A stretch of 32,220 nt of DNA from contig CAIPMZ010000066.1 of assembly GCA_903866285.1 (NCBI GenBank), positions 1 through 32,220 on the forward strand, in the 5' to 3' direction. The notes beneath the pieces were generated by a model. That model was not told where the DNA came from and did no database searches. It worked only from the letters and a program-made list of their open reading frames with translations. Positions 712 through 32,220 of this stretch are shown here, one piece after another. This DNA comes from an uncultured bacterium. GTDB lineage: Bacteria; Patescibacteriota; Minisyncoccia; Moranbacterales; GWC2-37-73. The position numbers were made by a program, and so were the translations under genes. Position 1 is the stretch's first letter. Each line of letters starts with the position of its first letter.

Positions 712-924
712 ATGTTTTAGTTAAAGATTATTTACGCTTTTATTATAATCTTTTGGCTAAAAAATAAAAGAGGGGATAAAAAAGAGGCGAGACATAAGCG
801 ACAATTTCTGGGAAAGAAAAAATGGCCAGCATTATTGAGTCCAAAGAGCTGGCTGATCTTCAAAAACTCATCTTCAATTTACTTTGGGATACGTTGCCGA
901 GGAAATAAAAAGCCGATGCAAAAC

Positions 925-1022
925 TACCTGCCCGCAATGCTGCGCCCGCCAGCAACGCTTCGCGTAGCGATGCGGACTGGCATAGCGTTGCAGGCGGGCC
1001 TGCCCTGGCGGCAGGCGGGCGA
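925..1022. repeat. GC-rich hairpin cluster related to the CCTGCC...GGCAGG module
   Basis: GCCCGCCAGCAACGCT (944..959) pairs with AGCGTTGCAGGCGGGC (984..999) with 1 mismatch, followed by CCTGCC-CTGGC-GGCAGG. It generates two spurious overlapping ORFs. Confidence 0.7.
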
Positions 1023-1157
1023 ATGAAATACGAATTTACGAAAATGGATCTTTGCACTGGGACGGAGCTAAGCTCCGGAATAGTAAATTACGAATGATTA
1101 AGTTAGTTTGGCATAAGATGTAAACCTTTCGTGTTGAAGTTATTTTAAAAAGTATTG

Positions 1158-2640: not shown

Positions 2641-3651
2641 ATGATTACCAATTCCGAAGAACAAATTGAAGATGTCTCCCTAGATAACACCCTCAGGCCG
2701 CAAAGGCTGTCGGAATATGTTGGCCAGGAAAAAATTCGCAAAAATTTGCAGATGTTTATTGACGCTGCCAAAAAAAGGGGTGAATCAATTGAGCATGTGC
2801 TTTTGTATGGACCGGCAGGGCTTGGCAAGACCACGCTGGCGCATATTATTGCCAATGAAATGGGCGTGAACATCAAAATCACTTCTGGGCCAGCTATTGA
2901 AAGAGTGGGCGACCTGGGCTCAATTTTGACGAACTTACAAGATGGCGATGTGCTTTTTATTGATGAAATTCATCGCCTCAACAAGTTGATCGAAGAAGTG
3001 CTTTATCCCGCCATGGAAGATTACAAATTGGATGTAATTATTGGGAAAGGCCCTTCGGCGCGAACTCTTCAACTTGATTTGCCAAAGTTTACTTTGATTG
3101 GTGCCACCACCAGATTGGGCAGCCTTTCCAATCCACTGCGCAATCGTTTCGGGGCAATTCACAGATTGGAATTTTACAATGATGAAGAAATGAAAAAAAT
3201 TATTTCTCGCAGTGGCAAAATTTTGGGCATTTCTCTGGATGAAAGTGGTTCTGGCGAAATTGCGCGCTCTAGTCGAAAAACTCCCCGCGTGGGTAACCGG
3301 ATGATTAAACGGGTGCGGGATTATGCTCAAATTAATGAGCATCCCGTAATTGATAGCGCTATCGCCAGAAAAGCCTTGGACATGATGGACGTGGATCACT
3401 TAGGCCTTGAACCGACTGACCGTTTTATTTTAGAAACCATTATCAAAAAATTCGGGGGCGGGCCAGTTGGAATTTCTACGATTGCGGCGGCCACTTCTGA
3501 GGAAATTGAAACAATTGAAGATGTTTACGAACCATTTTTAATTCAACTTGGCTTTCTAACGCGGACGCCCCGCGGGCGCGTCGTAACCGACAGCGGCTTT
3601 CTCCACATGGGTTATCCGGTGCCTGTCGAGAATCAGAATAAACTGCTATAA
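2641..3651 (+). CDS. ruvB: Holliday junction branch migration helicase RuvB
   Basis: [13 protein letters not shown], Walker [10 protein letters not shown], Walker [10 protein letters not shown] and sensor [16 protein letters not shown], at the full 336-aa RuvB length. Confidence 0.97.
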
Positions 3652-4067: not shown

Positions 4068-4645
4068 TTAATGGCTTTTCAAAATTTCATTTCAAGGGCG
4101 TCGGGGAAAATGAAGAGATCGTAAAAGTGCTTCATCGAAATTGGTTTTATCTTTTGCAACAATTTTTAATGTTGATTTTTTTGGCAGTAATTTTTCTTTT
4201 TTCCGTGACCTATATCCCGAGATTTTTCCCAGATTTTATGGGCTCACAGTCGAAGGAATTTTTAGCTTTTCTCGAAAATTTCTTTTTACTAATTATTTGG
4301 GTGTACGGTTTTTTAATTTGGATTGATTATTATTTTGATGTTTGGATAATTACGACTGAACGGATCGTGAATATTGAACAACAGGGGATGTTTTCGCGCA
4401 GAGTTAGTGAAATGGAATATTCAAAGATGCAGGATATTACCGCTGAAGTTGTTGGCTTTTTCCCCACGATTATAAATTACGGCGATGTCAGAGTCCAAAC
4501 GGCGGCTGAAGATAAGGAATTTGTTTTTAGAACAATCTCGGATCCGTATCATATCAAGAGTATCATTTTTAATATGCAAAAGCGCGACTCGCTGCAAAAC
4601 ACGAAAGAGCTTGGGGATATGATTAAAGGAAAAATCAGAGCTTAA
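4064..4645 (+). CDS. membrane-anchored bacterial PH-domain protein (bPH_2/YdbT-like)
   Basis: HRNWFYLL followed by two TM helices, then ITTERIVNIEQQGMFSRR...YGDVRVQT...FRTISDP. This is the pattern of DUF304/bPH_2 proteins. Confidence 0.62.
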   Translation: MINGFSKFHFKGVGENEEIVKVLHRNWFYLLQQFLMLIFLAVIFLFSVTYIPRFFPDFMGSQSKEFLAFLENFFLLIIWVYGFLIWIDYYFDVWIITTERIVNIEQQGMFSRRVSEMEYSKMQDITAEVVGFFPTIINYGDVRVQTAAEDKEFVFRTISDPYHIKSIIFNMQKRDSLQNTKELGDMIKGKIRA

Positions 4646-4670
4646 ATTTTCCAACGTAAAAAATTCGGGT

Positions 4671-4716
4671 GTTCCTAGGGACTTAGTCCCCAGCTGGGGA
4701 CTAAGTCCCTAGGAAC
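4671..4716. repeat. perfect 46-bp palindrome (family B)
   Basis: GTTCCTAGGGACTTAGTCCCCAGCTGGGGACTAAGTCCCTAGGAAC is its own reverse complement. It lies between the PH-domain gene and the LTD gene. Confidence 0.9.
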
Positions 4717-4758
4717 CAAATTTAGCCATAGAACTTAATTGCAAGGGGCAAACTTCGC

Positions 4759-6786
4759 GTGAACACAAAGAGAAAAATAAAATACGCGGTTGTATTTTTA
4801 TCACTGGCACTGCCAATTTTTTTGGCAGTGTTTTTTGTTTTTAATGAAAAGGCATGGTCTAGTGAAGGTGGCATAGATAAGGGTGATATTATAATAAACG
4901 AATTAATGTGGATGGGGATGGGTAGCTCCACGAGTGATGAATGGCTTGAGCTCAAAAATACAACAGCCAAGTTAATCAATCTTGATGAATGTCAAACTGT
5001 GAAGGTAATTGATGATAAGGAAATCATAGTAACGGCAAGTTTAAAAGATCAGACAATATCACCCAAAGATTATTTTGTAATATCCTATAAGACAAGAGAT
5101 GACTCGAAAATAAATACTGACACGCACAAGGCACTTTCTTATTTGTCACTTTCAAATACAACCCTAAGGCTTATATTAAAGTGTAGTGGAAATATTATAG
5201 ATACGGCTGGAGACGGAAAAATTCCATTTGCTGGAGAAAATAGTCTTATAAAAAAATCTATGGAGCGAAATGATATTTTTACTGATGGAGCAATGAAATA
5301 TAGTTGGCATACGTGTTCTGTGGCTGAAAATATTGATGCAAATACTACTGACTGTGCAACGCCTGGTGCAGAAAATTCAAAACTCGCAGAAAAAATTCCT
5401 GAGTCGCCAAAAGTTTACTCCGATAAAATTCAAATCACGGAACTTTTCCCTAATCCTTTTCAGGCTCAATATGAAGAATATATTGAACTATATAATGGCA
5501 CGGCGGAAAAGGTTGATTTAGCTGGCTGGACCTTGCACGATGCTTCAAAAACGGGAAAGTATACTTTCCCGGTAGGCTTTCTAATAAAAGCCAAAGAATA
5601 TTTGGCGATTTTTAAAAAAGATTTTAAATTTGCGCTCAATAATTCTGGCGATGAAAGGGTGACTCTTTTTGATCCCAATGGAAAAGAGGTTTCTAAAGCT
5701 TTGTATGACGGTAGCAAGCGAAACCTTTCCTATAACTTCGATGGCAACCGCTGGCGTTGGAGTAAATTTTTAACGCCGGGTGCGGAAAATATTTTAAACA
5801 GTGAGCCGTATGGAACTTTGAAAATTGATGATGATGTGTATGAAAATGTATATGCGAATTTTTCAATTTCAACTGGCGATAGTGATGGCGATAGTGTAAA
5901 AGTGACTTGGGATTTTGGCGATGGGCATAAAAGTTATTTATTAAAAACAAGGCATAAATATCTCGCCACTGGAAAATATTTAGCGAGCGTAAAATTAACC
6001 GATGGCAGCGAGGAGACTTTAAAAGAATTTGAGGTCGAAGTTCAGAAAATTCCGCATCCAAAAGTTGCGCTTGTTGCTGTCAAAGCAAATCCGAAAGGCA
6101 AAGATAGTGAGTTTGAAACTTTGACGATTAAAAATAATTCGAAAAAGAAAATAAATCTCAAAGGTTGGAGCATCGCAACTGGAACTAAAAAGCTTGCAAA
6201 CCACCCAATCAAAGAAAGCGTTGTTATTAAGAAGGGTAAAGCCAAGGAAATCACTCGCCAAGTTTCAAGTTTTTCCTTAAATAATAAAAAGGCGAAAGTT
6301 GAATTGCGTTATCCGGACGGCAAAATTGCCAGCAAATTAAAATATGATCACGGCAAGGTTTCGATTGCGGAAGATGAGGTTTATGAAAAAACAAAAGGCG
6401 GATGGGTTTGGATAGAAAAAATTTCAAATGACAAATCGCAAATTCCAAATAAGAGTCAAGATGCAATAGACAATATACAAAATTCAATAGACAATAGCCA
6501 GGATACAATAGAGGATATTCAAAATACAATAGATAGTGAATGGGAGGGCGAGCGAAAGGGAGTTGGACTCCCTTTGTGGGAGTCCAACTCCCAAGGGGGT
6601 GAGTTGGTAAATATTGAATTATTGAAAAATCAACCAGCTGTACTGGGAGCGGAAATGGTGCGGGAAGTCGGCGGACAATATTTTTTTACCTCACAAGTTG
6701 AGCAGAAACACTACCTGGTTTCGTTTTTTGAAAATCTTCTTGCTAGTTTAAATGTAGGAATGAATCAGATGTTGAATTATTTTTGA
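4759..6786 (+). CDS. secreted or anchored surface protein with three lamin-tail-like (LTD) domains and one PKD domain
   Basis: GTG start and an N-terminal hydrophobic anchor. LTD-like segments are IIINELMWMG..DEWLELKNTT, IQITELFPNP..EEYIELYNGTAEKVDLAGWTL and ANPKGKDSEFETLTIKNNSKKKINLKGWSI. The PKD motif is VTWDFGDGH. The C-terminal third is built partly from repeat-derived sequence. Confidence 0.75.
   Translation: MNTKRKIKYAVVFLSLALPIFLAVFFVFNEKAWSSEGGIDKGDIIINELMWMGMGSSTSDEWLELKNTTAKLINLDECQTVKVIDDKEIIVTASLKDQTISPKDYFVISYKTRDDSKINTDTHKALSYLSLSNTTLRLILKCSGNIIDTAGDGKIPFAGENSLIKKSMERNDIFTDGAMKYSWHTCSVAENIDANTTDCATPGAENSKLAEKIPESPKVYSDKIQITELFPNPFQAQYEEYIELYNGTAEKVDLAGWTLHDASKTGKYTFPVGFLIKAKEYLAIFKKDFKFALNNSGDERVTLFDPNGKEVSKALYDGSKRNLSYNFDGNRWRWSKFLTPGAENILNSEPYGTLKIDDDVYENVYANFSISTGDSDGDSVKVTWDFGDGHKSYLLKTRHKYLATGKYLASVKLTDGSEETLKEFEVEVQKIPHPKVALVAVKANPKGKDSEFETLTIKNNSKKKINLKGWSIATGTKKLANHPIKESVVIKKGKAKEITRQVSSFSLNNKKAKVELRYPDGKIASKLKYDHGKVSIAEDEVYEKTKGGWVWIEKISNDKSQIPNKSQDAIDNIQNSIDNSQDTIEDIQNTIDSEWEGERKGVGLPLWESNSQGGELVNIELLKNQPAVLGAEMVREVGGQYFFTSQVEQKHYLVSFFENLLASLNVGMNQMLNYF
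6558..6592. repeat. hairpin family A-like copy inside the LTD protein CDS
   Basis: GGGAGTTGGACTCCC-TTTGT-GGGAGTCCAACTCCC: perfect 15-bp arms and a 5-nt loop, translated in-frame as ...GVGLPLWESNSQ... Confidence 0.8.
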
Positions 6787-8451: not shown

Positions 8452-8703
8452 CTAACAAACAATAGGGTTCATAATCATTTTTATTTCAAACAACCTATCG
8501 TTATGTCCCCTAAGAGAAGCATTTTTGGCATGAAGCTCCTCAATCTCTAGTTTCAAACTCTCTAGAGTTTCTACTTCTCCGCCTGTTTCATTAAGCAATT
8601 CATTGTTATATTCCCTAAGGGAAATATTTTGGGCGCGAAGTGTCTTGATCTCGAGCTTTAAGCTCGCTAGAGTTTCTTCGTGTCCGCATTTTTCTGTTTT
8701 CAT
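8452..8703 (-). CDS. small coiled-coil protein with two internal ~27-aa repeats
   Basis: ETLASLKLEIKTLRAQNISLREYNNEL and ETLESLKLEIEELHAKNASLRGHNDRL. A GGAGA SD precedes the ATG. Confidence 0.5.
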   Translation of the reverse strand: MKTEKCGHEETLASLKLEIKTLRAQNISLREYNNELLNETGGEVETLESLKLEIEELHAKNASLRGHNDRLFEIKMIMNPIVC

Positions 8704-8778
8704 TTTTTCTCCGTTGGTTGCGTTGTTAAATAACTTTTTGTTAGATGATAGGTTATTCCTAATTCATCTTAACGGGCA

Positions 8779-8807
8779 AGTATATACTATTTTTAGTATT
8801 TTATCAA
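8779..8807 (-). promoter_or_regulatory. possible promoter TTGATA-N17-TATACT for the coiled-coil gene
   Basis: Minus-strand reading, about 75 nt upstream of the ATG at 8703. Confidence 0.4.
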
Positions 8808-8876
8808 TGGTAATAAATACTAATATGCCTAAAAATAGCCTAAAAATAGGATAATTAAAATTATTTATCAAAAATG

Positions 8877-8905
8877 TTGACAAATAGAGTAGTTTTTGGT
8901 AGGAT
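8877..8905 (+). promoter_or_regulatory. promoter TTGACA-N17-TAGGAT (TrmB-family gene leader)
   Basis: Consensus -35, a 17-nt spacer ending in TGG, and a TAGGAT -10. Confidence 0.55.
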
Positions 8906-8921
8906 TAAGATAATCTAATTA

Positions 8922-16574: not shown

Positions 16575-16902
16575 GATATGGATAATTTAATTTTTTCTGT
16601 GCTTAGTTGGATTAATAATTTGAAATTTAAAATTTAAAATTTGAATTGAATTTAAAATGTTTTAATTTTTTAAATTTTAAAATTTAGGCATTGATTTCAA
16701 ATTTAAAATTTCAAATTCCAAGATCCGAAATTACAAATCGTTTGAATGTTTGAGTTTTGATTGTTGAATTTTGTTTGCCTGCCTGCCGGTAGGCAGGGTT
16801 ATTGTATCTTGGTTATTGTATCTTTTACTTTGTATCTTTAGAAATTTATTTTATTTAAAAAGATGTGTTACATGCTCTATGTTTCATGTTTTGTGAAATT
16901 TT
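16575..16902. repeat. family E mosaic block with a CCTGCCGGTAGGCAGG hairpin and TTGTATCTT repeats
   Basis: 16741..16839 matches the reverse complement of 31322..31452. Confidence 0.85.
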
Positions 16903-24196: not shown

Positions 24197-24273
24197 GCTA
24201 AGAAAAGTTTGTTTAAAATAATTTTTTAGCGAGCCCATGCTGCATGTTTCATGTTTCATGTTCTATGTCTTCA

Positions 24274-24945: not shown

Positions 24946-27900
24946 ATGCCAAACCAAAAAAGATTGACGTTAATTAAGAAAAATAAACAAGGCTCCGCGC
25001 TAGTTTTTGCGCTTATCATTTTGTCTATGATGCTTACTGTCGCCATGAGTTTATCTACGGCAGCGGTAATGCAAAAGAAAAATGCCAGTTCCACCCAATC
25101 TTCTGTTCAAGCTTATCAAATTGCTGATAGTGGCGCTCAACTAGCACTTCGAATAATAAATCAAAAAATCACCTCGCTAGATATTGACCAACGGAGGGTA
25201 TTAGGTGCCTTCAGTAATTGCACCAATGGGGTAGTAGCTTTTAACGGTGGTAATTTGCCTGCGAATACAACCTTGAGCATTTCTTTTTTTAACGCTGAAG
25301 CTGTACCTAGATTAGTTGCCTGTAATGAACTCATTGATACCGTAGCCTCTATTCATGCAACTGCCCAAAATTTAAATAACGTCCGCGCTGTGGAACTAGC
25401 GGTTTCCAAGGAAGCTTCGCCAGTTGCTTGGTGGAAGTTTGATGATAGCACTGGTCCAACTGCAACCGATTCAAGTGGCAATTCTTTTGATGGAACTTTA
25501 ACTAATTTTCCAAGTTTAACCTCACCCTGGACAACAACAGGCAGATTACTGGGCGCGCTTAATTTTGATGGAAATGACGATTACGTGAATACAAGTTTTA
25601 ATCCTGCTTCTTCTCTTGGCCAAAGCTTTACTATTGAGAGTTGGGTTTATCCTACGGAGGCTGCTAATTATCGCGGAATTTGGGGTGCTCACGGAGCAAG
25701 TCCGTTTACAGGTATTGTGTTACAGCATAATAGGGGCGAATGGATAGCTAGCATTGGGGATGGTAGCACTTGGCATGAAATTGAGTTAGGAGTATTTGAG
25801 CTGAATAAATGGACCCATGTAGCAATAGTTTTTGAAGGTAGCCCGGCTGGGTCGGACGGTTTTTTAAAAGGCTATATTAATGGAGGATCAGGATCGAGTG
25901 GCAGTAGAACAATAGCAGCCACGATTAGTGGTCTCCAAGTTGTCCATGATCCATCTTTTTGGATAGGGCGCGGACATTCAGATTCTAGTAATAGATACTT
26001 CAAAGGTACAATTGATGACGTTAAAATTTTTGACTACGCTCTGTCGGGTCGAGAAATTTATAATGACTATCGAGACGGCTTTTTTAATTGTGTGGGTAAT
26101 TTGATAACAGGCGGAAGTTATTACCCAGGTGATGAAACTGACCCTCCGGAAAATCTTAACCCAGTGTACGATCCAATTGGAACAGATCGAAAATGTGAAT
26201 TTTTTTGTAGCGATTACTTCAACTGGCATGATCCAGATTGCCTTGAAGCAGTCTGCATGGGACTGCCTACAAATGCCACAGGATTTCCTTTACCTGATCC
26301 AGAGCCCTTAAAAGACAAGGCTTATACCTATAGTGGCATTGATAATCTTACGGTTACGTGTGAATTTGCTTGCAATACAGATTATGTTTATTATGCTCCA
26401 ACTAACACTTGCAATACTTGTACTGGGAGCGTGCCTGGTAATGCCGCAATGTATGCAAATGATAAAGATGGTTTGTCCGCAAATACCCCCCATATTAGAA
26501 GCGGCTCAAACACCTCAGCGAATTGTGAATATGAATGTGATGATTACTATAACTGGAATGGCAACAATTGCGAAAATGCAGCAATTTGTACGGGCCTGCC
26601 TGCGAATGCGGTAGCTTTTACTGATACTGGTAATCAAACGCCATTAAAAGACAAGGCGTATACTTTTAGTAGTAGTTATACGCCGGGAGATAAATGCGAA
26701 TTTACTTGCAATAGTGGGTACGTCTATGATAGCTCGGCTAAAATATGCGTAGGAAATCCTCCATCGGTGGAATACTTAGTGGTAGCTGGTGGCGGTGGTG
26801 GAGGTATGGATATGGGTGGCGGTGGCGGTGGCGGTGGCGTACTGAGTAATAGTTATAATGTTTCTATAAATCAAGCTTATACAGTTACAGTGGGTCTTGG
26901 CGGAGCGGGAGCTCCCGCTGCCGGCACGAATGGTCAACCAGCCGGACATCAATATACAGTGCCAGCCAACAATGGTCAGAACTCTGTTTTTGGAGCTATT
27001 ACGGCCGTAGGCGGTGGCCGTGGCGGAAGTTCCGGGAATAGTTATACCCCGGGTTCAGCCGGCGCTATGGGCGGTTCAGGCGGGGGAGCTTCGGGCTATA
27101 ATAATACGGCGGTAGATAGTTGGGTTTATTGCGCCGGCGAAAACGGTACTTGTTCATTCAGCGGGACATATGACGTTAAGTACGGTTGGGGTGGTAGCTG
27201 GGCATACCGATATGGCGTTGTCAATTCAATTTCTTGTAATAATGCTACCTTCGGAGATCCGATTCGTAAAAAAGTGAAGGCTTGTTATTATCATTTAATT
27301 AATTTAAATAACGCCTTGGGCGGCGCTGGAACTTCGGGCCAAGGAAACTCAGGTGGAAATCAGGGCAGTCCTTATTATTCGGGTGGTGGCGGCGGGGCTG
27401 GTGGGGCGGGGGCTAGTGGTAATGGTCAGGCTAATGGCGGAGTCGGATATCAAAGTTCAATTACAGGTGCAAATTTTTATTGGGGCGGCGGTGGCGGTGG
27501 CGCTGGGCATAGTATTACGGGGGGAAATGGTGGAGCTGGCGGCGGTGGCGGCGGGGCAGTCGGGGTAACAAGCGGCGGAGCAGGCCTGAATAATGGGCAA
27601 GCTGGCGGTGGCGGAGCTATTAATAGCTGGGCAAATACTCCCGGGGGAAATGCTGGCGCAAATACGGGCGGTGGCGGTGGGGGTGGCTCTCATTATAACG
27701 CGAATAATAAGGGTGGTGATGGTGGTTCGGGGATTGTGGTAATCCGGTATCCAGATAATTACATTGATTCAGTAACAACTGGGACAGTTGCCTACACCCA
27801 CGTAAATGGTTTTAAAATTTATACCTGGACCTCTTCAGGGTCAATAAATTTCTCGACTCAAGCAATGGCTACTTCTTGCGCAAATATTCTAGCCACTGGA

Positions 27901-28431
27901 AATTCCGTGGGGAATGGTACTTACTGGATTAAACCAACTGGATATACGGGAGCTCCCTTTCAAGTGTATTGCGATATGACTACGGACGGTGGTGGCTATA
28001 CCTATTTGTCAGTTTCAGGCGCGATAACAACGTTTCGAGCAACTGACAATAATTCCTGCAAAGCGCTGGGTATGAATATAGTAATCCCAAGGACGCAAGC
28101 TCAATTTACAGCCCTTTACGCTAAATACGGCGCCGGCTACTTCGCTACTGTCCCAGGCGTCTATGGCACAACCCCTGGAAATTATACTGGTTGTATTATG
28201 CGAAATCCTGCTAGTTATGGCACAGGGTGCGCTAATTGGTTTGCGCTTGATGGTGGAAAATGGTGGCTAGCTGATACGACTCACTCTGAACCAAATGGTG
28301 ACTATACGCCAGGTTGTTGGCTGAGTATGAATATCTGGACCCCTACCGCAAATATTAGTAATATACTGTTTAATGATGAGCTTTGCCATTACTCCACCTC
28401 AGCCTATATTTGCTCTACGAATGATAAATAG
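24946..28431 (+). CDS. 1161-aa PilX-N-like anchored surface protein: LamG + 4 Cys motifs + glycine-rich domain + fibrinogen/C-type-lectin-like C-terminus
   Basis: N-terminus KQGSALVFALIILSMMLTVAMSLST...VQAYQIADSGAQLAL (PilX_N-like). LamG (WWKFDDSTGPTATDSSGNSFDG...ALNFDGNDDYV...WTHVAIVF...FKGTIDDVKIFDYALS). CEFFCSDYFNW / CEFACNTDYVY / CEYECDDYYNW / CEFTCNSGYVY repeats. Poly-Gly runs. SCANIL...GTYWIKP...PFQVYCDMTTDGGGYTYL. EPNGDYTPGCW...FNDELCHYSTSAYICS. Confidence 0.85.
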   Translation: MPNQKRLTLIKKNKQGSALVFALIILSMMLTVAMSLSTAAVMQKKNASSTQSSVQAYQIADSGAQLALRIINQKITSLDIDQRRVLGAFSNCTNGVVAFNGGNLPANTTLSISFFNAEAVPRLVACNELIDTVASIHATAQNLNNVRAVELAVSKEASPVAWWKFDDSTGPTATDSSGNSFDGTLTNFPSLTSPWTTTGRLLGALNFDGNDDYVNTSFNPASSLGQSFTIESWVYPTEAANYRGIWGAHGASPFTGIVLQHNRGEWIASIGDGSTWHEIELGVFELNKWTHVAIVFEGSPAGSDGFLKGYINGGSGSSGSRTIAATISGLQVVHDPSFWIGRGHSDSSNRYFKGTIDDVKIFDYALSGREIYNDYRDGFFNCVGNLITGGSYYPGDETDPPENLNPVYDPIGTDRKCEFFCSDYFNWHDPDCLEAVCMGLPTNATGFPLPDPEPLKDKAYTYSGIDNLTVTCEFACNTDYVYYAPTNTCNTCTGSVPGNAAMYANDKDGLSANTPHIRSGSNTSANCEYECDDYYNWNGNNCENAAICTGLPANAVAFTDTGNQTPLKDKAYTFSSSYTPGDKCEFTCNSGYVYDSSAKICVGNPPSVEYLVVAGGGGGGMDMGGGGGGGGVLSNSYNVSINQAYTVTVGLGGAGAPAAGTNGQPAGHQYTVPANNGQNSVFGAITAVGGGRGGSSGNSYTPGSAGAMGGSGGGASGYNNTAVDSWVYCAGENGTCSFSGTYDVKYGWGGSWAYRYGVVNSISCNNATFGDPIRKKVKACYYHLINLNNALGGAGTSGQGNSGGNQGSPYYSGGGGGAGGAGASGNGQANGGVGYQSSITGANFYWGGGGGGAGHSITGGNGGAGGGGGGAVGVTSGGAGLNNGQAGGGGAINSWANTPGGNAGANTGGGGGGGSHYNANNKGGDGGSGIVVIRYPDNYIDSVTTGTVAYTHVNGFKIYTWTSSGSINFSTQAMATSCANILATGNSVGNGTYWIKPTGYTGAPFQVYCDMTTDGGGYTYLSVSGAITTFRATDNNSCKALGMNIVIPRTQAQFTALYAKYGAGYFATVPGVYGTTPGNYTGCIMRNPASYGTGCANWFALDGGKWWLADTTHSEPNGDYTPGCWLSMNIWTPTANISNILFNDELCHYSTSAYICSTNDK

Positions 28432-28447
28432 CTAAAAGTTGCTAAAC

Positions 28448-28490
28448 AAAAAAGAGAGTCTTAATTTTAACAAGGCTCTCTTTTTATTTT
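28448..28490 (+). terminator. intrinsic terminator after the giant surface protein gene
   Basis: AGAGAGTC-N13-GGCTCTCT followed by TTTTTATTTT. Confidence 0.65.
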
Positions 28491-28516
28491 CTAGGTTTTA
28501 CTGGTATACTTTAAAG

Positions 28517-29638
28517 ATGGAAAAGAAGCTCGAAAATTTAGAATTTTTGCAGTCGGCGCTCTGGCGTCAATTTCAGACTAGCGTGGGACGCAAAACTTTT
28601 TGCTTAGAGCGTGAAGGTTTTTTGGCGAGCGTGATCGAGCATAGTTTGCCATTAGTGGGGAAATATTGGTATTGCCCGAGAGGACCAGTATTTTTTGCTG
28701 AGGTAAAAAAAAATCTCAAATCTCAAATCTCAAATTCCAATAGGACTCAAATTTCAAATGAAAATCAAAAAGCTGAAATTCAAAACACAAATTCCGAGGG
28801 TGCAATAGAAAACGGAATACAGCAGTTAGTTAAATTGGCTAGGAAAGAAAAGGCGGGGTGGATTAGGATTGAGCCGGAAAGTGAAGAAATGCTGAAATAT
28901 ACAAAGGATGTGCTTGAAGAAATCCGCCCAAGGCGGACTGATTACAGAATCGTCAAGGCTCCGCATGATATGCAACCAAAAGAGATTTTCGTGATTGATA
29001 TTACGAAAGATGCGGAAACTTTGCTAAGCGAAATGAAACCGAAGACGCGGTATAATATTAGGCTTTCACAGAAACACAAGGTTTCCGTGAAAGCAATTTC
29101 CAATTTCCAATTTCCAATTTCCAATGAATATGTGGAAGCTTTTTTGAAACTTACGAAGGAAATGGCGAGCCGCCATGGAATTACGGCGCATCCGGAGCAG
29201 TATTACCGTAAGATGCTTGAGACCTTACCAACTGAGATGCTGAAAATTTACGTAGCGGAGTTTGAAGGGAAAATTATTGCGGCTAATTTAGTTTTATTTT
29301 ATGGTAAAACCGCGACTTATTTGCATGGCGCTTCTGGCAATGAACAGCGCAAAGTGATGGCGCCATTTCTGCTTCAATGGCAAGCCATTTTAGATGCAAA
29401 AGAATTGGGTTTTGAGAAATATGATTTCGGAGGTATCAAAACAATGTCCAATAATCAACAGTCAACAGACAATAAAAATACTTGGGAAGGGATTACGACG
29501 TTTAAACTTGGATTTTCGCCGAATACTACGCCGGTTCAGTTTCCAGGCAGTTATGATATTGTTGTTAATCCTAGGAAATATGGGGTGTATCGGGGATTGC
29601 AGAGAGCGAAGGGGTTAATGGTTAGGTTTAGAAAATAA
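28517..29638 (+). CDS. FemAB-family peptidoglycan peptide-bridge aminoacyltransferase
   Basis: FLQSALWRQFQ, YWYCPRGPV, KPKTRYNIRLSQK, ATYLHGASGNE and APFLLQWQAILDAKELGFEKYDFGGI. I chose the ATG at 28517 because a terminator hairpin (28448..28490) lies inside the TTG-28439 extension. Confidence 0.85.
   Translation: MEKKLENLEFLQSALWRQFQTSVGRKTFCLEREGFLASVIEHSLPLVGKYWYCPRGPVFFAEVKKNLKSQISNSNRTQISNENQKAEIQNTNSEGAIENGIQQLVKLARKEKAGWIRIEPESEEMLKYTKDVLEEIRPRRTDYRIVKAPHDMQPKEIFVIDITKDAETLLSEMKPKTRYNIRLSQKHKVSVKAISNFQFPISNEYVEAFLKLTKEMASRHGITAHPEQYYRKMLETLPTEMLKIYVAEFEGKIIAANLVLFYGKTATYLHGASGNEQRKVMAPFLLQWQAILDAKELGFEKYDFGGIKTMSNNQQSTDNKNTWEGITTFKLGFSPNTTPVQFPGSYDIVVNPRKYGVYRGLQRAKGLMVRFRK
28702..28800. 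repeat. family E-type low-complexity segment in-frame in the FemAB-family CDS
   Basis: AATCTCAAATCTCAAATCTCAAATTCCAAT...CAAATTTCAAATGAAAATCAAAAAGCTGAAATTCAAAAC, translated as KKNLKSQISNSNRTQISNENQKAEIQNTNSE. Confidence 0.75.
29093..29125. repeat. AATTTCC x4 module in-frame in the FemAB-family CDS
   Basis: GCAATTTCCAATTTCCAATTTCCAATTTCCAATGAA is translated as AISNFQFPISNE. The same heptamer array occurs in murE at 30968..30991. Confidence 0.8.
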
Positions 29639-29795
29639 GATTTGGAAATTAGTTAGTCACGGTATTTTTTGAGCTTTTAATGTCTAATGACTAATATCTA
29701 ATTCCTAATAAAATCCTAAGGTCAAATGTTAAAATGTTTTTGGTTTTTTTGAATTAGAAATTAATTAGACATTGGAAATTAGGTATTAGAAATTT
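29639..29795. repeat. family E mosaic block (FemAB-family gene to murE spacer)
   Basis: AATGTCTAATGA is shared with 3688..3699. GGAAATTAG and TTAGAAATT units are present. Confidence 0.65.
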
Positions 29796-31256
29796 ATGAG
29801 ATTTATTAAAAAACTGTTTCCCCAATCTTTCAAAAATGTCTATCATCTCCTCCAAGCTCTCTTGGCGAATTTTCGCTATGGTTTCCCTGCCCGCAAGCTT
29901 AAAGTGATTGGGGTGACCGGCACGGATGGAAAAACGACGACGGTGCAGATGATTGCCAAAATCCTGCAAAAAGCTGGGAAAAAAGTTGCCGTGGCTTCAA
30001 CCATTAACTTTGTGATTGACGGTGTGGAAGAAAAAAATCTTTCGCACTATACCACAGAGTCGCCCTTTGCGCTGCAGAAATTTATTCGCCAGGCGGTAGC
30101 AGCTGGTTGTGAGTATTTAGTTTTAGAAACTTCTTCGCATGCCCTTGATCAATACCGAGTCTGGGGGATTGATTTTCAAGTTGCGGTCATCACAAATGTG
30201 ACCAGGGAACATTTGGATTATCACAAAACGATGGAAAAATATCGAGCGGCGAAGAAAATCCTTTTCGAAAATGTGGCAAAAAAAATATCAGTCATCAGTC
30301 ATCAGCCTGCCTCGTCGGCAGACAGGTCATCAGCAATTATTGTTAACGCTGATATGGAGAGACCAGCGGAATTTCTCAATTTTGATGTCAGTAAAAAGTT
30401 TGTTTATTCAGTTAAGGGTAATCAATTACCGATGACAGATGACCGATTGCAATATGTTTATGCGGAGGAAATCGAACTTGGAATAAGTTATTCAAAATTC
30501 AAAATTCAAAATTCAAAATTTGTGTTAAATGTCCCTGGACTTTTCAACGTCGAGAATGCCCTGGCAGCTGTCTGTGTGGCCCTGGGTGAGGGGATTGATT
30601 TAGCCCAGGCAAGTGAAGCTCTTTCGGAAATAAAAGGCGTGGCAGGGCGAATGGAGGCCGTAGAGAACGATTTAGGGGTCAATATCTTAGTTGATTTTGC
30701 CCTCACGCCTAATGCCCTAGAAAAGCTTTACAGCTTACTTTTCAGCGTTAAAAAAGAAGGCGCTAAAATTATTGCGATTTTAGGTTCTTGCGGCGATCGC
30801 GACCAAGGAAAAAGGCCTCTAATGGGCGAAATTGTAGCCAAATATGCCGACCTGATTATACTAACTAACGAAGAGCCTTATCATGAAGAACCGCAAGCGA
30901 TTATAGATCAAATATTTGTGGGAGTCATAGCTGAAGAAAAATGTGAGAATGCTGAGTCAAATGGTTCTTCCAATTTCCAATTTCCAATTTCCCTGCCTAC
31001 CGGACAGGCAGGCAATTTCCAAATAAACCCAAATGACCAAATTTCAAAACCTAAGAAAAAAATGGTTGAAGGGGAAAATTGTTGGAGAATTTTGGATCGT
31101 CGGCAGGCGATTGCTAGGGCGCTGTCGCTTGCTAAAAAAGATGATATTGTTTGTATCACCGGGATGGGAAATTTTGAAACGATGGTCGTCGGCGATGAAA
31201 AGTTGCCTTGGAATGATCGAAAGGTGATTGAAGAGGAACTGGGGAAAATACAATAA
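29796..31256 (+). CDS. murE: Mur ligase, MurE-like (UDP-MurNAc-tripeptide synthetase)
   Basis: IGVTGTDGKTTT, LVLETSSHAL, AVITNVTREHLDYH, GLFNVENALAA, GRME, VDFALTPNALEKL, GSCGDRD and ILTNEEP. It contains three repeat-derived in-frame insertions. Confidence 0.85.
   Translation: MRFIKKLFPQSFKNVYHLLQALLANFRYGFPARKLKVIGVTGTDGKTTTVQMIAKILQKAGKKVAVASTINFVIDGVEEKNLSHYTTESPFALQKFIRQAVAAGCEYLVLETSSHALDQYRVWGIDFQVAVITNVTREHLDYHKTMEKYRAAKKILFENVAKKISVISHQPASSADRSSAIIVNADMERPAEFLNFDVSKKFVYSVKGNQLPMTDDRLQYVYAEEIELGISYSKFKIQNSKFVLNVPGLFNVENALAAVCVALGEGIDLAQASEALSEIKGVAGRMEAVENDLGVNILVDFALTPNALEKLYSLLFSVKKEGAKIIAILGSCGDRDQGKRPLMGEIVAKYADLIILTNEEPYHEEPQAIIDQIFVGVIAEEKCENAESNGSSNFQFPISLPTGQAGNFQINPNDQISKPKKKMVEGENCWRILDRRQAIARALSLAKKDDIVCITGMGNFETMVVGDEKLPWNDRKVIEEELGKIQ
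30287..30335. repeat. ATCAGTC repeats plus CCTGCCT..CGGCAGACAGGTC module in-frame in murE
   Basis: The hairpin module differs by only a few bases from the intergenic copy at 31384..31405. Translated as ISVISHQPASSADRSSAI. Confidence 0.8.
30491..30519. repeat. TTCAAAA x4 module in-frame in murE
   Basis: TTCAAAATTCAAAATTCAAAATTCAAAAT is translated as SKFKIQNSKF. Confidence 0.7.
30968..31050. repeat. composite E module (CAATTTC x3, CCTGCC-N9-GGCAGG hairpin, CAAATTTCAAAAC tail) in-frame in murE
   Basis: Translated as SSNFQFPISLPTGQAGNFQINPNDQISKP, between the conserved ILTNEEP and RILDRRQAIARAL blocks. Confidence 0.8.
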
Positions 31257-31568
31257 ACAAAAGACAATACCCAGAAAGCAATTTTGAAATAATTAAGATA
31301 TGATAAACAATACTATTTAAATAACCAAGATACAGGAAACATAAAAATAAGAAACAAGATACAAGAAACAATAACCCCGCCTACCTGCCTATCGGCAGAC
31401 AGGTCGGCAGACAGGCAAACAAAATTCAATAATCAAAATTTAAATATTCAAACCCTTTGTTTTTTGGATCTTGGAAATTGAAATTTGTTTGTGATTTGTA
31501 TCTTGGTGTTTGTATCTTGGATGCTGGCTTTTATTTGGTATTTGTATCTTGTATTTTTTGTTTTCTTT
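31257..31568. repeat. family E mosaic block, internally palindromic (CAAGATAC ... GTATCTTG) with CGGCAGACAGG hairpin modules
   Basis: It contains the inverted copy of 16741..16839, plus direct-orientation TTTGTATCTTGG units at 31490..31555. Confidence 0.85.
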
Positions 31569-32012
31569 CTAGCCAAGTAGTTGAATAAGCGCCAAGGTTA
31601 AAACAAACCCAAGGATGACCCCGACAATGACTTCGCTGACGCGGTGACCAGTGCGTTCTTTCAGGCGCGGATATTTTTCAGTGTCAATATTAAGCTGTTC
31701 GACTAACATATTAAGGTAGCGTCCTTGGTCGCCAAGGTGCATACGCAGTCGAGTAGCATCGTCGATAATTAGAAAGGCTAACGCAATCGCCACGGCGAAA
31801 GCCCCAGAATCGATGCCTTCAAAATAACCAACGGAAGTAATAATGGAAACCGCAAAAGCCGCGTGGGCGCTTGGCATGTGTCCGTGCGTGAGCATATAGC
31901 GAATATCCCAACCATGTTTCAGGCTGTAGAGAATGAATTTGATTGCTTGCACAATTATCCCAACAACAATAGGGATAATGAAAATGGCGTGGTCGATGAT
32001 AAATTGCAACAT
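31569..32012 (-). CDS. divergent PAP2 / DUF212-family membrane protein
   Basis: GHMPSAHAAFAVSI...IIDDATRLRMHLGDQG matches the acid-phosphatase/vanadium-haloperoxidase-related DUF212 pattern. I chose the ATG at 32012 (MLQFII) because the longer ORF extension runs through a repeat copy. Confidence 0.8.
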   Translation of the reverse strand: MLQFIIDHAIFIIPIVVGIIVQAIKFILYSLKHGWDIRYMLTHGHMPSAHAAFAVSIITSVGYFEGIDSGAFAVAIALAFLIIDDATRLRMHLGDQGRYLNMLVEQLNIDTEKYPRLKERTGHRVSEVIVGVILGFVLTLALIQLLG

Positions 32013-32061
32013 AGTTTTTGGTTGTTTAAGAGTTAAGATATTTTCATTATAGCACAAAAAT

Positions 32062-32082
32062 TTCCTAGGGACTAAGTCCCTG
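32062..32082. repeat. half-copy of palindrome family B
   Basis: TTCCTAGGGACTAAGTCCCTG shares the CCTAGGGACT(T/A)AGTCCC core with 4671..4716. Confidence 0.7.
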
Positions 32083-32121
32083 CACTCGCCCATGTCATAC
32101 TTAACACTCTGACATGCCTAA

Positions 32122-32220
32122 AATGGAAAAATACAGTATCATCTCTAGATTTACTCAATTAATCATTGAAGACCCTAGAGATTCTATGCAAATAATAGCA
32201 GAAAACATCCTTAACCCTCA
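32122..32220 (+). CDS. possible 5' end of a gene running off the window
   Basis: ATG at 32122 is followed by 32 open codons to the window edge (MEKYSIISRFTQLIIEDPRD...). No other support. Confidence 0.25.

Follow-up and report, generated by a model that had tools for sequence, protein, structure and literature searches.

The window analyzed here is a 32,220-nt stretch of DNA (contig CAIPMZ010000066.1 of GenBank assembly GCA_903866285.1, positions 1 to 32,220, read on the forward strand) from an uncultured bacterium of the Moranbacterales, within the Patescibacteriota. Near its 3' end lie two adjacent cell wall genes, encoding a FemAB-family transferase and a MurE-type ligase, and both carry tandem arrays of 7-nt units (heptamers) inside their open reading frames (ORFs). 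A preliminary description of this DNA had proposed that the segments in the two genes belong to one repeat family and were inserted in frame. We delimited these tracts, aligned FemAB with 28 orthologs of 317 to 418 amino acids (aa) and MurE with 22 orthologs, and followed the repeat modules through other genomes. The window serves as the reference stretch; L-numbers designate loci of relatives or of the wider collection, and P-numbers designate ortholog proteins. The genes and tracts are as follows.

28517..29638, forward strand: FemAB/FemX-family aminoacyl-tRNA-dependent peptidoglycan bridge transferase, 373 aa (assigned by Pfam, PDB, AlphaFold, and synteny)
28700..28801, forward strand: S1, a heptamer-derived tract of ~14 units, FemAB residues 62 to 95 (insertion relative to short orthologs)
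28711..28735, forward strand: perfect AAATCTC x3.6 array inside S1, 25 nt (Tandem Repeats Finder, 100% match)
29094..29125, forward strand: S2, an AATTTCC array (CAATTTC rotation, x4.6; Tandem Repeats Finder, 100% match) with the core AATTTCC x4 plus AA at 29095..29124
29456..29476, forward strand: S4, decayed heptamers CAACAGT CAACAGA CAATAAA, in a variable low-confidence loop at FemAB residues 308 to 329
29796..31256, forward strand: MurE-type Mur ligase, 486 aa; orthologs, 415 to 497 aa (assigned by Pfam and ortholog alignment)
30287..30333, forward strand: murE site a, an ATCAGTC array split by hairpin B, CCTGCCTCGTCGGCAGACAGG (30306..30326), encoding SVISHQPASSADRSS
30490..30520, forward strand: murE site b, a perfect ATTCAAA x4.4 array encoding YSKFKIQNSKF, in a segment of native length
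30968..31050, forward strand: murE site c, an AATTTCC array (30968..30992, TTCCAAT x3.6, and 31014..31022) split by hairpin A, with a heptamer-like tail

Heptamer tracts of the FemAB and murE genes

The FemAB ORF matched Pfam family PF02388 with 118 bits (cut-off, 24; E = 6e-34), and its best sequence match in the PDB was Weissella FemX (E = 1.4e-17). Its AlphaFold model (mean predicted local distance difference test score [pLDDT], 77; predicted TM score, 0.75) shows the two GNAT lobes of the FemX fold; Foldseek placed FemX 1xe4 first (E = 8e-21), with TM scores of 0.65 to 0.72 to Weissella FemX. Translation most likely begins at the ATG at 28517, giving 373 aa, rather than at the TTG at 28439. 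The murE product matched Mur_ligase_M (7.7e-44) and Mur_ligase_C (1.5e-24), and the gene order PBP1A-RuvA-large protein-FemAB-MurE-DUF212 is kept in relatives. From the names and loci of its matches, the window belongs to a Candidate Phyla Radiation bacterium akin to Candidatus Moranbacteria.

The arrays that had been claimed in FemAB and murE are real. Tandem Repeats Finder returned three period-7 arrays with a 100% match, at 28711..28735, 29094..29125, and 30968..30992. The window holds 11 perfect period-7 arrays of 2.5 units or more, compared to a mean of 0.01 (maximum, 1) in 200 first-order Markov simulations, while periods 5, 8, 9, and 10 gave none. Exact 7-mers recur at a distance of 7 at 0.3 to 0.5% of positions, against 0.005 to 0.05% for other periods; the exceptions to this specificity are period 6 in a Gly-rich protein and a single period-11 array. 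Head-to-tail copies of 7 nt are thus far beyond chance and period specific, as expected of heptanucleotide tandem repeats of the simple sequence repeat (SSR) or short tandemly repeated repetitive sequence (STRR) type. Of the array reported at 28702..28800, the portion at 28711..28735 is perfect; the remaining ~65 nt (28736..28800), into which it runs on, hold only degenerate heptamers. The AATTTCC array placed near 29093..29125 is a perfect 32-nt array at 29094..29125, and its murE counterpart lies at 30968..30992. The translations given previously, KKNLKSQISNSNRTQISNENQKAEIQNTNSE and AISNFQFPISNE in FemAB and SSNFQFPIS in murE, are correct.

In the FemAB alignment, length variation clusters in four hotspots, S1 to S4, with S1 after the PRGP motif, S2 after the GVxV strand, and S4 before a conserved W. 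Relative to orthologs of 317 to 336 aa and to Weissella FemX, the sequences at S1, S2, and S4 are extra. At S1, residues 64 to 94 read KKNLKSQISNSNRTQISNENQKAEIQNTNSE and immediately follow YWYCPRGPV; the degenerate stretch contains stops in both other frames. The tract is missing from P0003, P0024, P0027, P0036, and P0099. L001, L002, and L028 share it, apart from indels of 33 and 69 nt, each of a length divisible by 3. The AAATCTC array is identical in L028, and in L001 and L002 it has the same length with the third unit substituted. The S4 region, also variable in length, was absent from the preliminary description and constitutes a third heptamer tract of FemAB. Residues 62 to 91 (nt 28700..28789) and 308 to 329, in S1 and S4, are the two internal segments of the model with a pLDDT below 50. 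By ORF position only, perfect arrays in four further orthologs fall at S4: AAACAAC in L004, AAACAAG in L012, AAAATTC x4.9 in L018, and AAAAAAC x4.7 in L021. At S2, residues 193 to 204 read AISNFQFPISNE, and the core encodes ISNFQFPISN. This adds ~6 residues relative to FemX and the short orthologs and is modeled at a pLDDT of ~81 as the end of a strand (residues 190 to 194), a loop (195 to 200), and the first turn of a helix (201 to 219).

At the remaining hotspot, S3 (EFEG^GKII), L026 (881..946), P0009, P0026, and P0072 have a GC-rich palindrome of 45 nt that encodes GPxSTRGNDRSSTRG; FemAB of the window is without it.

The murE gene carries modules of the same kinds at three sites, of which the preliminary description had listed neither 30287..30333 nor 30490..30520. 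At site a, only the window, L001, and L028 have the insertion among the 22 orthologs. At site c, where the array is read as SSNFQFPIS and hairpin A (CTGCCTACCGGACAGGCAGGC, 30993..31013) as LPTGQAG, the insertion is confined to the window and L001 of the 22. Site b is of a different nature: this segment is gap-free and of the same length in all 22 orthologs, and the array overwrites native sequence. L001, L002, L013, L014, and L028 have the same 31-nt array unchanged, and L006 and L007 have other units. In L005, every unit reads TTCGAAA instead of TTCAAAA: all copies have changed in concert, while the site and the length have stayed the same.

Two further features of MurE in relatives were noted. 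A 30-nt insert encoding NPxxxGxHGAR follows ILEKAG in L001 (7511..7564), L002, L004, L005, and L012, and the window is without it. Close to the MurE N terminus, L003, L028, and L015 contain in-frame palindromes, PACNAMRSIAGRPS and similar, that are related to a nested cluster of GC-rich palindromes at 915..1030 of the window (CCTGCCCGCAATGC…GCATAGCGTTGCAGGCGGGC…CTGCCCTGGCGGCAG), a region with no ORF of at least 100 aa.

Nucleotide identity and turnover of the modules in diverged orthologs

The S2 module was compared codon by codon among relatives. The identical 30 nt (AATTTCC x4 plus AA) occupy the same codon in the window, L024, and L266 and lie offset by one codon in L009; in the nucleotide listing, L011 matches these 30 nt and the codons on either side. 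Core amino acid identity to the window FemAB is 60 to 72% for L024, L266, and L009, and at identical residues elsewhere in the protein these three share 47 to 53% of codons, yet all 10 codons of S2 are identical in them and the window. Over all relatives the same-codon rate is 44 to 58%, excepting L001 (81%) and L020 (32%). Ten identical codons would therefore be roughly a 1e-3 event per pair.

Other relatives show a different picture at the same site. Of the loci compared, L001 is the most similar in core sequence (80% identity; codon identity, 81%), yet its S2 is unrelated and includes a 21-nt hairpin. In L028, S2 is a TCATCAG array that carries hairpin B, and L003, L008, and L013 have short nonrepeat sequence. 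L026 has the window's array plus exactly two 21-nt hairpins, which are read in two frames, as PAYRTGR and CLPDRQA. In L398, a copy of the same length has decayed by ~11 substitutions. Because the same codon is occupied in distant relatives, S2 is old or recurrent at this site and not a recent event in this genome. The overall picture suggested by these comparisons is that the module was kept or remade perfect in several lineages, decayed in one, and was replaced or lost in others.

These data bear on what had been concluded about the origin of the segments. That the FemAB segments belong to the same repeat family as those of murE holds. Relatives show nothing, identical nucleotides, or a different repeat module at these positions. 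That they are insertions and not ancestral linkers holds in part: the modules are defined at the DNA level and are missing from short orthologs and Weissella FemX, but S2 is old or recurrent and murE site b has native length. The pattern that would point to a linker, the same peptide region with diverged, nonrepetitive nucleotides, was found in L398 only.

Reading frame, which had been offered as an argument for insertion and as a sign of a frame preference, carries no weight. As 7 is not divisible by 3, an array passes through all registers over three heptamers (21 nt, seven codons), and the same cyclic peptide, NFQFPIS, results whatever the frame. Read in its three frames, S2 gives AISNFQFPISNE, QFPISNFQFPM, and NFQFPISNFQ, and SNFQFPIS appears in both FemAB and MurE because the nucleotides are the same. 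Consistent with this, the 95 forward AATTTCC arrays found in long ORFs use all three phases (27, 24, and 44), and there is no frame preference. The accompanying suggestion of selection for stop-free frames is borne out. Since 7 and 3 are coprime, a heptamer unit within a gene needs all seven of its cyclic triplets to be free of stops. Among AT-rich heptamer classes, 39 of 265 are open in all six frames, AATTTCC included. Coding arrays are open on the sense strand, where their units have much C and little G: in 136 other coding arrays, the sense strand had more C than G in 85 and more G than C in 18, whereas the sense strands of the genome have more G than C. This arithmetic provides a clean, testable rule for which units can invade genes and could be used for genome screening.

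Exact 21-nt hairpin insertions and 30-nt blocks across phyla

The AATTTCC array behaves as a discrete unit. Exact AATTTCC x4 was present in at least 119 species genomes (loci L149 to L266), mostly Candidate Phyla Radiation (CPR) bacteria of many groups but also Nitrospirae, Verrucomicrobiota, Gemmatimonadota, Acidobacteriota, and Bacteroidota. The length of perfect runs peaks at 30 to 31 nt (35, 34, 22, 13, and 10 arrays at 30, 31, 32, 33, and 34 nt, respectively), with few above 35 nt. Of the 35 arrays of 30 nt, 32 begin exactly at AATTTCC, with three phases detectable. Among 12 AATTTCC arrays at loci fetched by other patterns, all 10 that are uninterrupted measure 30 to 32 nt; the other two are a 25-nt part of a hairpin-split array and an array at a locus also returned by the AATTTCC scan. 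The variable copy number and arbitrary phase and ends of a microsatellite are thus not features of these arrays. Among FemAB orthologs that carry the array, its length and frame do not differ; the copy number is constant (4.3 to 4.6 units) in every lineage examined, with no out-of-frame alleles seen. No coding array of any other unit exceeds 34 nt. The block is found in both orientations (99 forward, 28 reverse) at unrelated positions of unrelated genes, and although AT-rich, it also lies inside GC-rich contigs of Nitrospirae, Chthoniobacterales, and Gemmatimonadota. It is predicted to be free of structure (0 kcal/mol; all 200 shuffles fold at least as well). Intergenic copies are often found immediately 3' of a terminator-like palindrome, and a recurrent degenerate tail (…AAATCCAAATGACCAAA…) frequently follows the block.

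The second kind of module is a 21-nt hairpin, of which two families were distinguished. The fold of hairpin A is a stem of 7 bp with a loop of 7 nt (-6.3 kcal/mol). The reverse complement of hairpin B is identical to hairpin A at 16 of 21 positions, and this reverse complement pairs fully with one G.T wobble. Across 37 hairpin variants, the 3' arm hardly varies; the base at position 5, which faces a G, is C in 18 variants and T in 17 (C-G and T.G), and a double compensatory change (A-T) was found just once. As only one of the two strands keeps the pairing, the intermediate may be a single-stranded hairpin of RNA or DNA. Two intergenic hairpins of the window are related to these families.

16778..16797, reverse strand: hairpin CCTGCCTGCCGGTAGGCAGG, family A reversed and one base shorter, adjoining heptamer arrays (-8.0 kcal/mol)
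31384..31415, forward strand: family B-type hairpin with a 12-nt duplication (TCGGCAGACAGG x2) (-8.8 kcal/mol)

Around the second of these, in the spacer between the convergent murE and DUF212 genes (31280..31560), heptamer arrays stand in inverted orientation (AAGATAC and AAGAAAC types versus GTATCTT types).

Filled and empty sites differ by exact multiples of 21 nt. The window is the empty site for the two hairpins at S2 of L026 and for S1 of L028, where one 21-nt hairpin is nested in another. Hairpin A occurs between units of varied heptamer arrays, in the center of other palindromes, nested, and in frame in genes. Hairpins lie inside heptamer arrays in the window (30968..31022 and 30287..30333), at S2 of L026, and in L044, L083, L120, and L122, and nested copies are present in L028, L035, L078, L102, L145, and L146. 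In GlyA of Ohtaekwangia (L074, 1244..1264), hairpin A forms a clean 7-aa insert (...DLRSKN[LPTGQAG]LTGK...), and an ORF of the cultured species Membranihabitans marinus with hairpin B reads ...LLD[LSADEAG]GVEVV.... The base 5' of hairpin A is C in 130 of 134 copies, and the net insertion is exactly 21 nt, with an ambiguity of at most 1 nt. Together, the in-frame hosts of the modules include FemAB, MurE, GlyA, an amidohydrolase-like ORF, and pyruvate kinase.

The exact 21-mer of hairpin A was found in at least 120 species-representative genomes from many phyla (loci L029 to L148), as well as on 13 viral-contig stretches, and that of hairpin B in at least 118 species genomes, again from many phyla (loci L280 to L359). 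By chance, fewer than one occurrence of a 21-mer is expected in the 596 Gb searched. Hosts include many CPR groups, Bacteroidota, Nitrospirota, Ignavibacteria, Latescibacterota, Planctomycetota, Dehalococcoidia, and others. Among them are cultured Bacteroidota (Arenibacter, Flagellimonas, Pleomorphovibrio, Dokdonia, Membranihabitans, and Gelidibacter); the carriers of hairpin B include closed Latescibacterota chromosomes and cultured Dokdonia, Membranihabitans, and Gelidibacter. Use of frames in long ORFs is skewed. Hairpin A is read as LPTGQAG in 37 cases, in the other forward frames in 15 and 11, and in reverse in 9; hairpin B is read as PASSADR in 27 and LSADEA in 32, with no other of the six frames above 5. 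The favored frames give small, polar, Cys-free peptides.

Origin of the modules and comparison with known systems

We favor, with a probability of roughly 60%, the reading that the FemAB segments are in-frame, stop-free DNA modules of a dispersed repeat family that sit in tolerant surface loops, and not functional peptide domains. The data above show modules of defined size (21 and ~30 nt, both divisible by 3) that are inserted in gene segments or overwrite them, that selection filters for frame, stops, and peptide quality, and that evolve in concert. From this we infer that they are passengers, selfish or neutral, and no functional part of FemX. There would be two types: a heptamer array, which in its AATTTCC version is a block of ~30 nt or 10 codons, and 21-nt hairpins of seven codons, found in murE here and in FemAB of relatives, that would enter at exact points, either between two heptamer units or within their own loop. 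Heptamer arrays act as landing pads for the hairpins. Selection retains only copies whose length is a multiple of 3, whose sense strand is free of stops, whose peptide is benign, and whose site is a loop. Arrays are kept perfect or remade in concert instead of drifting, and sometimes decay, are replaced, or are lost. Our leading guess for the writing of arrays is that a single heptamer is copied over and over, by slippage or by template switching, and for hairpins, copy-paste of a single-stranded hairpin intermediate by some trans-acting activity.

More tentatively, and at somewhat less than even odds in our judgment, the FemAB and MurE modules may be local copies of at least three ultrasmall, sequence-defined insertion elements (hairpin A, hairpin B, and the 30-nt AATTTCC block) that are written and kept identical by a trans-acting, template-directed activity working in 7-nt steps. 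Lengths of 21 (three times 7) and 30 nt (10 codons), free of stops, would then be adaptations to gene-dense genomes.

Several points weigh against the reading favored above. The perfect conservation of S2 amid saturated synonymous sites is not what is predicted for a neutral passenger, and it requires ongoing homogenization, reinsertion at a hotspot, or a function at the nucleotide level. The array at 30490..30520 lies in a predicted structural segment of native length, so the arrays are not always insertions or in loops. The enzyme or template that writes the modules was not found: by Pfam, none of 22 annotated ORFs of the window, FemAB and murE included, is a transposase, a reverse transcriptase, or a transposase of the REP-associated tyrosine transposase (RAYT) type. 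Outside CPR, genes were called as open stretches of at least 150 to 200 codons, which over-calls genes in GC-rich contigs; since overlapping spurious ORFs make coding status in GC-rich metagenome-assembled contigs unreliable, we did not rely on it there. The genome counts for the 21-mers and for AATTTCC x4 are lower bounds for abundance and taxonomic spread.

The arrays might instead be ordinary local microsatellites that arose by slippage in place within ancestral linkers, with nothing mobile and with the likeness between genes and phyla due to convergence on stop-free AT-rich heptamers. Heptanucleotides are over-represented among bacterial SSRs, for which slippage tied to the polymerase footprint has been hypothesized (PMC4692102). 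The 39 six-frame-open classes, AATTTCC among them, leave room for such convergence; the units at one site vary by lineage; the change of all units in L005 fits homogenization in place; and L398 resembles the classic decay of an interrupted array. We nevertheless consider this unlikely. A free-running repeat should differ in its length and phase, whereas AATTTCC has a fixed size and fixed ends (32 of 35 in one phase and few over 35 nt), and the same AT-rich 30-mer lies within GC-rich contigs of other phyla. Slippage by 7 nt in either direction would be lethal in coding DNA, homogenization at constant length needs another cause, and the 21-nt hairpins are beyond slippage altogether. Somewhat less probable again, in our view, is a functional nucleic acid motif with a secondary role for the peptide, for example a phased protein-binding site, an unstructured stretch of mRNA that adjusts how the message is translated or degraded, or a signal for recombination or replication. 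Identity at all 30 bases of S2 despite saturated synonymous sites, the size of ~30 nt fixed inside and outside genes, the frequent position of intergenic blocks right after a terminator-like palindrome, and the absence of predicted structure in the array would all suit such a motif, and the perfect conservation of S2 keeps this alternative in play. It fits poorly with the unrelated S2 of L001 and the many orthologs with nothing there, with the units of murE site b that differ between lineages, and with a block that occurs in both orientations in many unrelated genes and positions. There was also no Rfam family match: at a permissive threshold, 28000..32220 gave one chance-level match only.

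That ISNFQFPIS and the S1 peptide are functional ancestral linkers of a Moranbacteria-specific FemX, with incidental repetitiveness, seems very unlikely. The peptide ISNFQFPIS(N) does recur at one position in several orthologs, L398 has a related peptide with diverged nucleotides, and S2 is modeled with reasonable confidence (pLDDT, ~81). Against this, the same block encodes the same peptide in unrelated proteins (MurE and pyruvate kinase), and in L026 the peptide is broken by two hairpins in different frames. Orthologs with 76 to 80% core identity are unrelated or empty at S2, S1 is predicted to be disordered, and codon identity is far above what conservation of the amino acids would lead one to expect. 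We give still less weight to a phase-variable contingency locus in which changes of 7-nt copies switch FemAB or MurE on and off. Intragenic repeats are the classic design of such loci in Haemophilus and Neisseria, and here too the repeat is short, tandem, and of a unit that is not a multiple of 3, so that one unit more or less shifts the frame. However, copy number is constant across lineages, no out-of-frame allele was seen in those examined, the arrays are short, the genes encode core cell wall enzymes, and the same blocks are common in intergenic DNA. An assembly or sequencing artifact, to which low-complexity repeats are prone, has a negligible chance of explaining modules that occupy orthologous in-frame positions in independent assemblies from many studies and that also occur in cultured isolates of Arenibacter, Flagellimonas, Dokdonia, Membranihabitans, and Gelidibacter. 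Programmed frameshifting at an AAATTTC slippery-type sequence was considered and rejected, as AATTTCC, AAATCTC, AAAATTC, and most other units are off the pattern and downstream frames would be lost. An origin of the hairpin from tRNA or signal recognition particle RNA was considered by visual inspection and set aside.

For the dispersed modules that we favor, the closest analogue appears to be the heptamer repeats and small dispersed repeat (SDR) hairpins of the Nostocaceae. In 2008, Elhai et al. reportedly described SDR hairpins of 21 to 27 nt that lie in tandem heptamer repeats, nest within themselves, were recently mobile, and encode no enzyme. Compared by description and not by sequence, the present modules share the 21-nt hairpins in heptamer arrays, the nested copies, and the filled and empty pairs. 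SDRs are said to be confined to a subgroup of cyanobacteria (Nostocaceae, a restriction reportedly restated for SDR5), whereas the 21-mers described here span CPR, Bacteroidota, Nitrospirota, Latescibacterota, Planctomycetota, and others and lie in frame in conserved genes. No cyanobacteria appear among the ~240 matches listed for the two exact 21-mers. STRR heptanucleotide repeats reportedly also lie inside the RNase P RNA gene of heterocystous cyanobacteria (described by Vioque in 1997); like them, the arrays here are abundant genome-wide and tolerated inside a functional gene, and unlike them, they are protein coding and pass a three-frame stop filter, have in AATTTCC a fixed size of 30 nt, and reside in noncyanobacterial hosts.

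Rickettsia palindromic elements are also among the nearest analogues. Reportedly described by Ogata et al. in 2000 and outlined in two later reports (PMC10969869, PMC3733652), they measure ~100 to 150 bp and lie in frame in many housekeeping genes. Both they and the present modules are selfish-type repeats that encode a conserved peptide and insert in frame into unrelated genes at positions compatible with the fold, here low-pLDDT or loop regions. The differences are that our elements measure 21 and 30 nt, that the heptamer block is nonpalindromic, and that they cross phyla, where the Rickettsia elements are, on those accounts, essentially restricted to one genus. Repetitive extragenic palindromic (REP) elements carry GTAG or CGTC tags and are mobilized by RAYT transposases, according to PMC3733652 and PMC3116915. 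They resemble the hairpins as dispersed GC-rich palindromes of 20 to 40 nt that are sometimes coding; CGTC is present in hairpin B, and GTAG can be read on the reverse strand of hairpin A. These tetranucleotides are in or next to the loop and not at the end of the palindrome, where a terminal tag would lie. REP families are lineage specific, whereas the 21-mers are identical across phyla, and no RAYT is encoded in the 32-kb window. The terminal inverted repeats, target-site duplication, and length of 70 to 300 bp of miniature inverted-repeat transposable elements are likewise not those of elements of 21 to 30 nt.

Our search of the open full-text literature returned nothing on the two 21-mers, on the AATTTCC array, or on the peptides SNFQFPIS and LPTGQAG, and nothing relevant on heptanucleotide repeats in CPR or Patescibacteria. 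The sequence-identical elements found across phyla thus have a substantial chance of being something not yet described. If the reading favored here is true, many puzzling insertions that lengthen CPR proteins and complicate their alignment would be footprints of tiny DNA elements and not lineage-specific adaptations, and would have to be read differently in annotation, phylogeny, and structure prediction. On the more tentative reading of ultrasmall insertion elements, these would form a class of mobile or templated DNA smaller than any established one and would be a general source of loop insertions in bacterial proteins. Identity over 21 or 30 nt across phyla, remade at one codon in a saturated gene, would point to a new mechanism of mobility or templating or to an unrecognized nucleic acid signal.

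Additional features were observed in the neighborhood of these genes. In L026, near FemAB and MurE, there are reverse transcriptase and bAvd-like genes of the diversity-generating retroelement type (4245..5640 and 8542..8913), with no evident connection to the repeats. Upstream of FemAB in the window, positions 24946..28431 encode a 1161-aa protein with a PilX-like N terminus, a Laminin_G_3 domain, and a C-terminal fibrinogen-like segment; it contains long Gly-rich tracts from GGTGGC repeats, with a local GC content of up to 0.52. The RuvA start codon is overlapped by a CATGTTT x2.9 array (24243..24262), which provides an ATG every 7 nt and hence in all three frames, and the first ~10 residues of RuvA lie upstream of the Pfam RuvA_N match. 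In L001, an ATGTTCC x2.9 array (2737..2756) lies close to where an ORF of 207 aa begins; by length and position, this ORF is a putative RuvA ortholog.

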